DNA from: Escherichia coli
Lineage (GTDB): Bacteria > Pseudomonadota > Gammaproteobacteria > Enterobacterales > Enterobacteriaceae
DNA: 64,000 bases
NCBI RefSeq assembly: GCF_003334305.1
Contig: NZ_QOWS01000022.1
Strand: one strand, 5' to 3'
Under the pieces are notes generated by a model that did no database searches, was not told where the DNA came from, and worked only from the letters and a program-made list of their open reading frames with translations. The stretch's first letter is position 1. Each line of letters begins with the position of its first letter. Positions 33,123 to 33,255 of the stretch are shown here, piece after piece. Both the position numbers and the translations under genes were made by a program.

Positions 33123-33149
33123 GATGCTCTCCCAAATATGAAATCTCTT

Positions 33150-33174
33150 GCTGGCATTACAAGAATCATGCCAA
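33150..33174 (-). promoter_or_regulatory. Candidate sigma54 promoter of pspG
   Basis: Minus-strand ttGGcatgattctTGtaat resembles TGGCAC-N5-TTGCA (GG at -24, GT instead of GC at -12), about 25 nt upstream of the pspG ATG. Confidence 0.45.
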
Positions 33175-33255
33175 AAATAATCTATTGATTTAACAGCAAA
33201 ACGCCCCGCGACGGTGCGCAGGGCGTGGTGAATTTGACTACTTTTTGGTGAAAAG

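Follow-up and report, generated by a model that had tools for sequence, protein, structure and literature searches.

The dusA-pspG intergenic region of Escherichia coli: a known sigma-54 promoter of the PspF regulon and a hairpin that may terminate dusA transcription

When analyzing a 64-kb stretch of Escherichia coli DNA (hereafter, the window), we examined the 133-bp gap that separates dusA from pspG and conclude, with a probability of about 95%, that it represents the already described control region of E. coli pspG, a gene that forms the second transcription unit of the PspF (phage shock) regulon. According to this reading, sigma-54 RNA polymerase would sit in a closed complex on TTGGCAT-N5-TTGTA (33174..33158), and PspF, an AAA+ enhancer-binding protein, would bind 33255..33225, directly after the dusA stop codon. 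IHF, at 33190..33178, would bend the DNA so that PspF touches the polymerase and opens the promoter using ATP, and transcription would begin near 33147, yielding a 25-nt leader with a strong ribosome-binding site. Without stress, PspA would keep PspF inactive.

Published experiments on identical sequence have shown occupancy of the region by sigma-54 as well as binding of PspF at, and its positive control of, pspG. In the work of Lloyd et al. in 2004, yjbO/pspG was reportedly found to depend on the sigma-54 polymerase for its transcription, with PspF and IHF as activators and PspA as a negative regulator. The sigma-54 promoter of pspG, its PspF enhancer and the IHF bending site have already been published, so the feature is known in full outline. 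What is added here is small, namely, the breadth of the conservation of the T at -12 and the reading of a hairpin as a nested dusA terminator. Reviews describe pspG as a single-gene unit under PspF control that lies outside the psp operon (PMC3041696, PMC2763126), and the induction of psp by secretin or membrane stress, along with its repression by PspA, is stated in the literature (PMC3709507, PMC3041696, PMC2763126).

Gene order and protein identities at the locus

The gap (33255..33123, minus strand) is identical to the corresponding region of E. coli K-12 MG1655 at 133 of 133 bases, so experiments performed with MG1655 are directly applicable. A megablast search of 5,426 complete E. coli genomes identified the dusA-pspG-qorA stretch of the E. 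coli chromosome in every one of them, with 100% identity to several. On the minus strand, between 32700 and 33700, the 3' end of a long open reading frame is followed by a TAA codon, the 133-bp gap, an ATG at 33122 and an 80-codon open reading frame that extends to 32880. The long frame is the RefSeq-annotated dusA (tRNA dihydrouridine synthase A; 33256..34293, minus strand), which scores 581.6 bits with the NCBIfam model TIGR00742 and the stop codon of which, as read from the sequence, is the TAA at 33258..33256. The short frame is the RefSeq-annotated pspG (32880..33122, minus strand; 80 amino acids plus stop), the product of which is labeled 'envelope stress response protein PspG' by RefSeq on identical DNA. 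Its score with the TIGR02975 (phageshock_pspG) equivalog model, 88.6 bits, is above the curated cut-off of 53.7 bits and places the protein in the PspG family.

The initial annotation of this DNA described pspG as an orphan that is located away from any pspABCDE operon in the window, in a 133-bp gap after dusA. The length of the gap is exact, with the TAA ending at 33256 and the ATG starting at 33122, and the orphan label is correct as well because tblastn of the 64-kb window detected no homologue of pspA, pspB, pspC or pspF. The surrounding 41 kb comprise the usual malEFG ... lexA-dinF-zur-dusA-pspG-qorA-dnaB-alr-tyrB ... uvrA-ssb-soxSR neighborhood, and dusA is found upstream of pspG in all 32 aligned species.

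Downstream of pspG, the MG1655 annotation, when mapped to the window, places the small RNA PspH (b4758 in MG1655; 32713..32823, minus strand), which overlaps the pspG 3' UTR and has its 3' end at the terminator 32744..32722, just downstream of pspG. PspH is a sponge of the small RNA Spot 42 (Spf) and may have its own promoter (PMC5145812). Rfam includes no family for PspH, and an Rfam search over 32500..33500 returned nothing except two sub-threshold matches on the pspG/qorA terminator. In the segment 32722..32744 (both strands), a 9-bp stem without mismatches (AGGGCTTCC...GGAAGCCCT) is flanked by T-runs on either side; the segment lies between the convergent pspG/PspH and qorA, and looks like a shared bidirectional terminator.

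At the other end of dusA, the 5' end of the E. coli gene together with the upstream DNA (about 34180..35650, minus strand) aligns with the sequences of Salmonella arizonae and diarizonae (alignment columns about 500-640). This region does not align with those of E. albertii, E. whittamii, Citrobacter and Enterobacter, and these four have another conserved 5' end and promoter in common. A+T-rich open reading frames (yjbM/yjbL, DUF2713) are present upstream of dusA in the window. Integrative elements are known to target and replace the dusA 5' end, and the divergent 5' region of dusA may be a relic of an element of this kind.

The sigma-54 promoter and its -12 element

The promoter, TTGGCATGATTCTTGTA (33158..33174, minus strand), carries the -24 GG at 33172/33171 and the -12 GT at 33160/33159, that is, with the canonical sigma-54 -24/-12 spacing of one helical turn. 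The matrix scan that had been proposed as a check in the initial annotation was performed with a matrix derived from 41 published sigma-54-bound intergenic sites of E. coli, with pspG excluded. The promoter is the top match of the 64 kb on both strands, with a score of 17.4 bits that exceeds the median of the bound sites used to derive the matrix (15.7 bits, with a minimum of 9.2). The consensus TGGCAYN5TTGYW occurs once in the window, against 0.52 occurrences expected.

The possibility to be weighed at this point is that the -24/-12-like string is a chance resemblance and that pspG is made from a sigma-70 promoter within the gap or by read-through from dusA. Indeed, a score of 17.4 bits was reached somewhere in 46 of 200 shuffled versions of the 64 kb (23%), so the motif alone is weak evidence over a sequence of this length; moreover, the -12 element departs from the GC consensus, and dusA lies on the same strand, only 133 bp upstream. 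However, when scaled to one strand of the 133-bp gap by arithmetic from the shuffle test, the chance of such a score is about 2e-4, and a chance match is unlikely given that the predicted start falls 25 nt before the ATG within this gap. Furthermore, the conservation of the 17-mer far exceeds that of neutral positions, with a mean column identity of 0.92 across 22 enterobacterial genomes compared to 0.61 for the third codon positions of dusA and 0.60 for the pspG 5' UTR, which argues that the promoter is real and that the contribution of chance is negligible.

Direct binding evidence points in the same direction, with sigma-54 occupying the site both in vivo and in vitro. Site OS40 in the sigma-54 ChIP-seq study of MG1655 is exactly TTGGCATGATTCTTGTA, is assigned to b4050 (pspG) with a distance of 25, and is flagged as confirmed; the same study names pspA and pspG as PspF-regulated (PMC4591121). 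The RpoN holoenzyme binds the dusA-pspG spacer in vitro, as detected by genomic SELEX (PMC8743547), and sigma-54 ChIP-chip in Salmonella LT2 shows enrichment of the pspG site TGGCATGATTTTTGTAAG (PMC3844500). As for the other sources of pspG transcripts, a scan of the gap for sigma-70 promoters yields nothing promoter-like on the minus strand, and the covarying hairpin described below, a putative terminator, separates dusA from pspG. Taken with these observations, the combination of a chance match with sigma-70 or read-through transcription appears extremely improbable. The sigma-54 -24/-12 promoter that the initial annotation perceived in the dusA-pspG gap is borne out by its spacing, its conservation and the published binding on identical sequence.

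Lower-scoring matches to the sigma-54 matrix were found elsewhere in the window. The next best are ATGGCGAAATTGTTGCA (1821..1837, minus strand; 14.6 bits) and CTGGCGCGTAAGCTGCA (24486..24502, plus strand; 14.4 bits), with a further match, GTTGCATAATATCTGCA, at 14133..14149 (minus strand; 13.6 bits), and all three scores are inside the range obtained with shuffled sequence. An inverted repeat, TGGCAT-N10-ATGCCA (33152..33173, minus strand), encloses the part of the promoter between -24 and -5. Since it is not preserved outside E. coli, for instance in Citrobacter or Enterobacter, the repeat probably arose by chance.

The GT that replaces GC at -12, to which the initial annotation drew attention, is present but is not a weakness of the promoter. 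The dusA-pspG region was gathered from 45 genomes, of which 32 were scanned for the best sigma-54 site upstream of pspG; this set spans Escherichia, Citrobacter, Salmonella, Enterobacter, Silvania, Yersinia, Rahnella, Serratia, Brenneria, Prodigiosinella and Pantoea. The -12 doublet is GT in 30 of the 32, with a single GC (S. enterica diarizonae) and a single GA (Entomohabitans). Being kept this widely in the pspG promoters of Enterobacterales, the T is maintained and does not represent a decayed base. The E. coli pspA promoter, TTGGCACGCAAATTGTA, read directly in the MG1655 locus, also has a T at -12, and so does pspA of Salmonella (PMC3844500). Among the 42 intergenic sense sites in the ChIP-seq table, only three, those of pspA, pspG and ygeW, have this base (PMC4591121). 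The C at -12 is the consensus but is not obligatory.

Enhancer, hairpin, IHF site and leader

The candidate PspF enhancer (upstream activating sequence, UAS) is CTTTTCACCAAAAAGTAGTCAAATTCACCAC (33225..33255, minus strand), a conserved 31-bp block centered at about -93 that begins one base after the dusA stop codon and is located entirely within the gap. Within it, TTCACCA is repeated at an interval of 20 bp (33252..33246 and 33232..33226). In the alignment of the gap from 23 genomes, 22 of which were used to calculate mean column identities, the 29-bp core of the block (33253..33225) has a mean column identity of 0.86, and 11 columns of the block are invariant. A matrix was built from the pspG block and run over 3 kb around pspF-pspA of MG1655, and its best two matches, one on each strand, fall upstream of pspA, at 1412..1448 of that locus (L001), with scores of 16.6 and 14.8 bits. 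The third-best match in this region scores -1.2 bits, and on shuffled sequence, the mean maximum is -2.3 bits, with none of 500 shuffles reaching the top score. Measured from the predicted pspA start, the matched segment spans about -127 to -91; the published PspF footprint on pspA reportedly extends from about -126 to -80. Thus, the block upstream of pspG resembles the pspA enhancer, as is expected of a member of the PspF regulon. Within the window, the candidate UAS is unique, the next match scoring 7.6 bits. In Brenneria and Serratia, the block is a clear dyad (GACTAACTGTTAGTC), which fits the recognition of both strands of the pspA region by the matrix.

From these sequence comparisons, we conclude that the PspF site is most likely the block 33255..33225, near -93. 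The initial annotation held that the enhancer would have to sit within, or overlap, the 3' end of dusA; this expectation is not upheld because the pspA-like conserved block lies wholly inside the gap, so the enhancer needs no dusA coding sequence, although a protein footprint might extend by a few bases into the final codons of dusA. PspF has been reported to bind the UASs at both pspA and pspG, the latter having a single UAS, and deletion of the pspG regulatory region alters PspF dynamics and raises basal pspA expression (PMC3709507). A literature search for the coordinates of PspF UAS I and II yielded none at sequence-level detail, and the pspG promoter is not treated in PMC3068692.

The identity of the activator deserves separate consideration because the dusA-pspG spacer is also among the NtrC targets identified by genomic SELEX (peak height 58%, at about 4260864 in MG1655; PMC8743547). 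This could imply that the sigma-54 promoter is served by a second enhancer-binding protein, such as NtrC, so that pspG would answer to nitrogen status in addition to membrane stress. However, published work names PspF as the regulator of pspG, the conserved upstream block matches the pspA enhancer, and SELEX peaks obtained in vitro are often without an effect in vivo. We therefore regard a second activator as very unlikely and retain PspF as the protein that acts on this promoter.

Next to the candidate enhancer, a terminator scan, RNA folding and covariation analysis delineated a hairpin, ACGCCCTGCG-CACCGT-CGCGGGGCGT, followed by TTTT (33198..33226, minus strand). The stem (33226..33201) consists of 10 bp, including 8 G-C pairs, and the T-run is short; the energy of the fold is -20.3 kcal/mol (z = -3.2). 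Across 23 genomes, 96% of the cells are paired and 7 of the 10 pairs show compensatory changes, a level of pairing that no shuffle or slid register comes close to. The hairpin is present in Yersinia and not evident in Brenneria in the species alignment. With its G+C-rich stem, T-run and compensatory stem changes, the segment 33226..33198 has the features of an intrinsic terminator, and we infer that it terminates dusA, with the enhancer on one side of it and the IHF site on the other. The dusA transcripts would then stop past the enhancer and before the IHF site and the promoter.

Alternatively, the hairpin could be conserved as DNA, either because it belongs to the PspF site or because it acts as a spacer that maintains the geometry of the enhancer and the promoter. 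The 5' arm of the hairpin does share two bases (33226 and 33225) with the end of the UAS block, and the length of the hairpin is nearly constant in close species. However, the compensation is pairwise whereas the loop varies freely (mean column identity 0.53), which speaks for selection on a folded RNA rather than on protein-binding DNA, and the stem is followed by a T-run. A role of the hairpin as a DNA element is, accordingly, the less probable explanation by a wide margin, and we prefer the predicted terminator.

Between the hairpin and the promoter lies an IHF consensus, AATCAATAGATTA (33178..33190, minus strand), a perfect match to WATCAANNNNTTR that is centered near -37 and has a mean column identity of 0.79 in 22 genomes. 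The exact consensus is found in 20 of the 32 species, the other 12 having no exact WATCARNNNNTTR match at the aligned place. The core bases CA (33187, 33186) and TA (33179, 33178) are invariant in the 32-species alignment. Counted from its first base, the match precedes the -24 GG by 18-19 bp in Escherichia, Citrobacter, Silvania and Pantoea, and by 28-29 bp in Brenneria and Prodigiosinella. The motif points to an IHF site at 33190..33178, and its predicted position between the enhancer and the promoter is that expected for IHF-assisted looping. At psp promoters, PspF is known to act with the assistance of IHF (PMC3709507).

The transcription start of pspG is predicted at about 33147 (minus strand), which places it 12 nt beyond the -12 T and 25 nt ahead of the ATG. 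The rule used for this prediction agrees with the published 'distance 25' for pspG and reproduces the value of 41 given for pspA. The -24/-12-like string noted in the initial annotation, ttggcatgattcttgtaat (33174..33156, minus strand), was said to lie about 25 nt upstream of the ATG; the string actually ends 33 nt before the ATG, and it is the predicted start that is found 25 nt upstream. Within the leader, the Shine-Dalgarno sequence GGGAGAG (33127..33133, minus strand) has a mean column identity of 0.94.

The length of the pspG leader varies widely across genera (about 1435..1480 in loci L010 and L021, and about 1310..1500 in L035). The distance from the -12 T to the ATG is 37 nt in E. coli, 95-118 nt in Brenneria and 192 nt in Yersinia. 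In Salmonella arizonae and diarizonae, a hairpin-like insert of about 30 nt (GACCCGGTAAGCGC...GCCGGGC) is present between the promoter and the ribosome-binding site.

Relationship to other sigma-54 promoters and implications

The region described here is the same locus, with the same sequence, as the E. coli pspG (yjbO) promoter of Lloyd et al. 2004 (J Biol Chem 279:55707), and there is no difference between the two: sigma-54 dependence, activation by PspF, a single UAS and the lack of linkage to pspABCDE are features of both. With the E. coli pspA promoter, the pspG promoter has in common the activator PspF, the style of the core promoter with a T at -12 and the assistance of IHF, and the pspA enhancer is recognized by the matrix that was built from the pspG block. 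The differences between the two lie in the arrangement of the upstream region and in the output. The pspA promoter has two UASs and about 100-fold induction, compared to one UAS and about 20-fold induction for pspG (PMC3709507). The pspA enhancer is centered about 12 bp farther upstream than that of pspG and is common to the divergent pspF promoter; the 5' UTR of pspA is 41 nt long, against 25 nt in pspG. Finally, pspA has no terminator inside the enhancer-promoter loop, whereas in pspG this is where the hairpin is found.

The pspG promoter also resembles the generic IHF-looped sigma-54 promoters, such as glnAp2, nifH and Pu. They have the same GG at -24 and G(C/T) at -12 at fixed spacing, and likewise an enhancer about 70-100 bp upstream with an IHF site in between. 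It departs from the generic pattern in having a T for the consensus C at -12, and, unlike the activators of the generic sigma-54 systems, PspF lacks a sensory domain, its activity being governed in trans by PspA.

The pspG promoter has been the textbook second target of PspF since 2004, and the binding of sigma-54 to it has been mapped genome-wide. The analysis presented here shows that a real sigma-54 promoter that deviates from the consensus is recognizable from raw sequence, and that five signals are packed in 133 bp, namely, the enhancer, the putative terminator of the upstream gene, the predicted IHF site, the -24/-12 element and the ribosome-binding site. Beyond this known outline, we raise, as a tentative proposal that is more apt to fail than to hold, that the T at -12 is a selected signature of PspF-dependent promoters and that the dusA terminator is nested in the enhancer-promoter loop, both perhaps previously undescribed. 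If so, the -12 T could adjust the closed complex to an activator that is constantly active except when held by PspA. Transcription of dusA would cross the PspF site and stop before the promoter, insulating pspG, and, conceivably, the nested terminator could couple dusA transcription to the occupancy of the enhancer.
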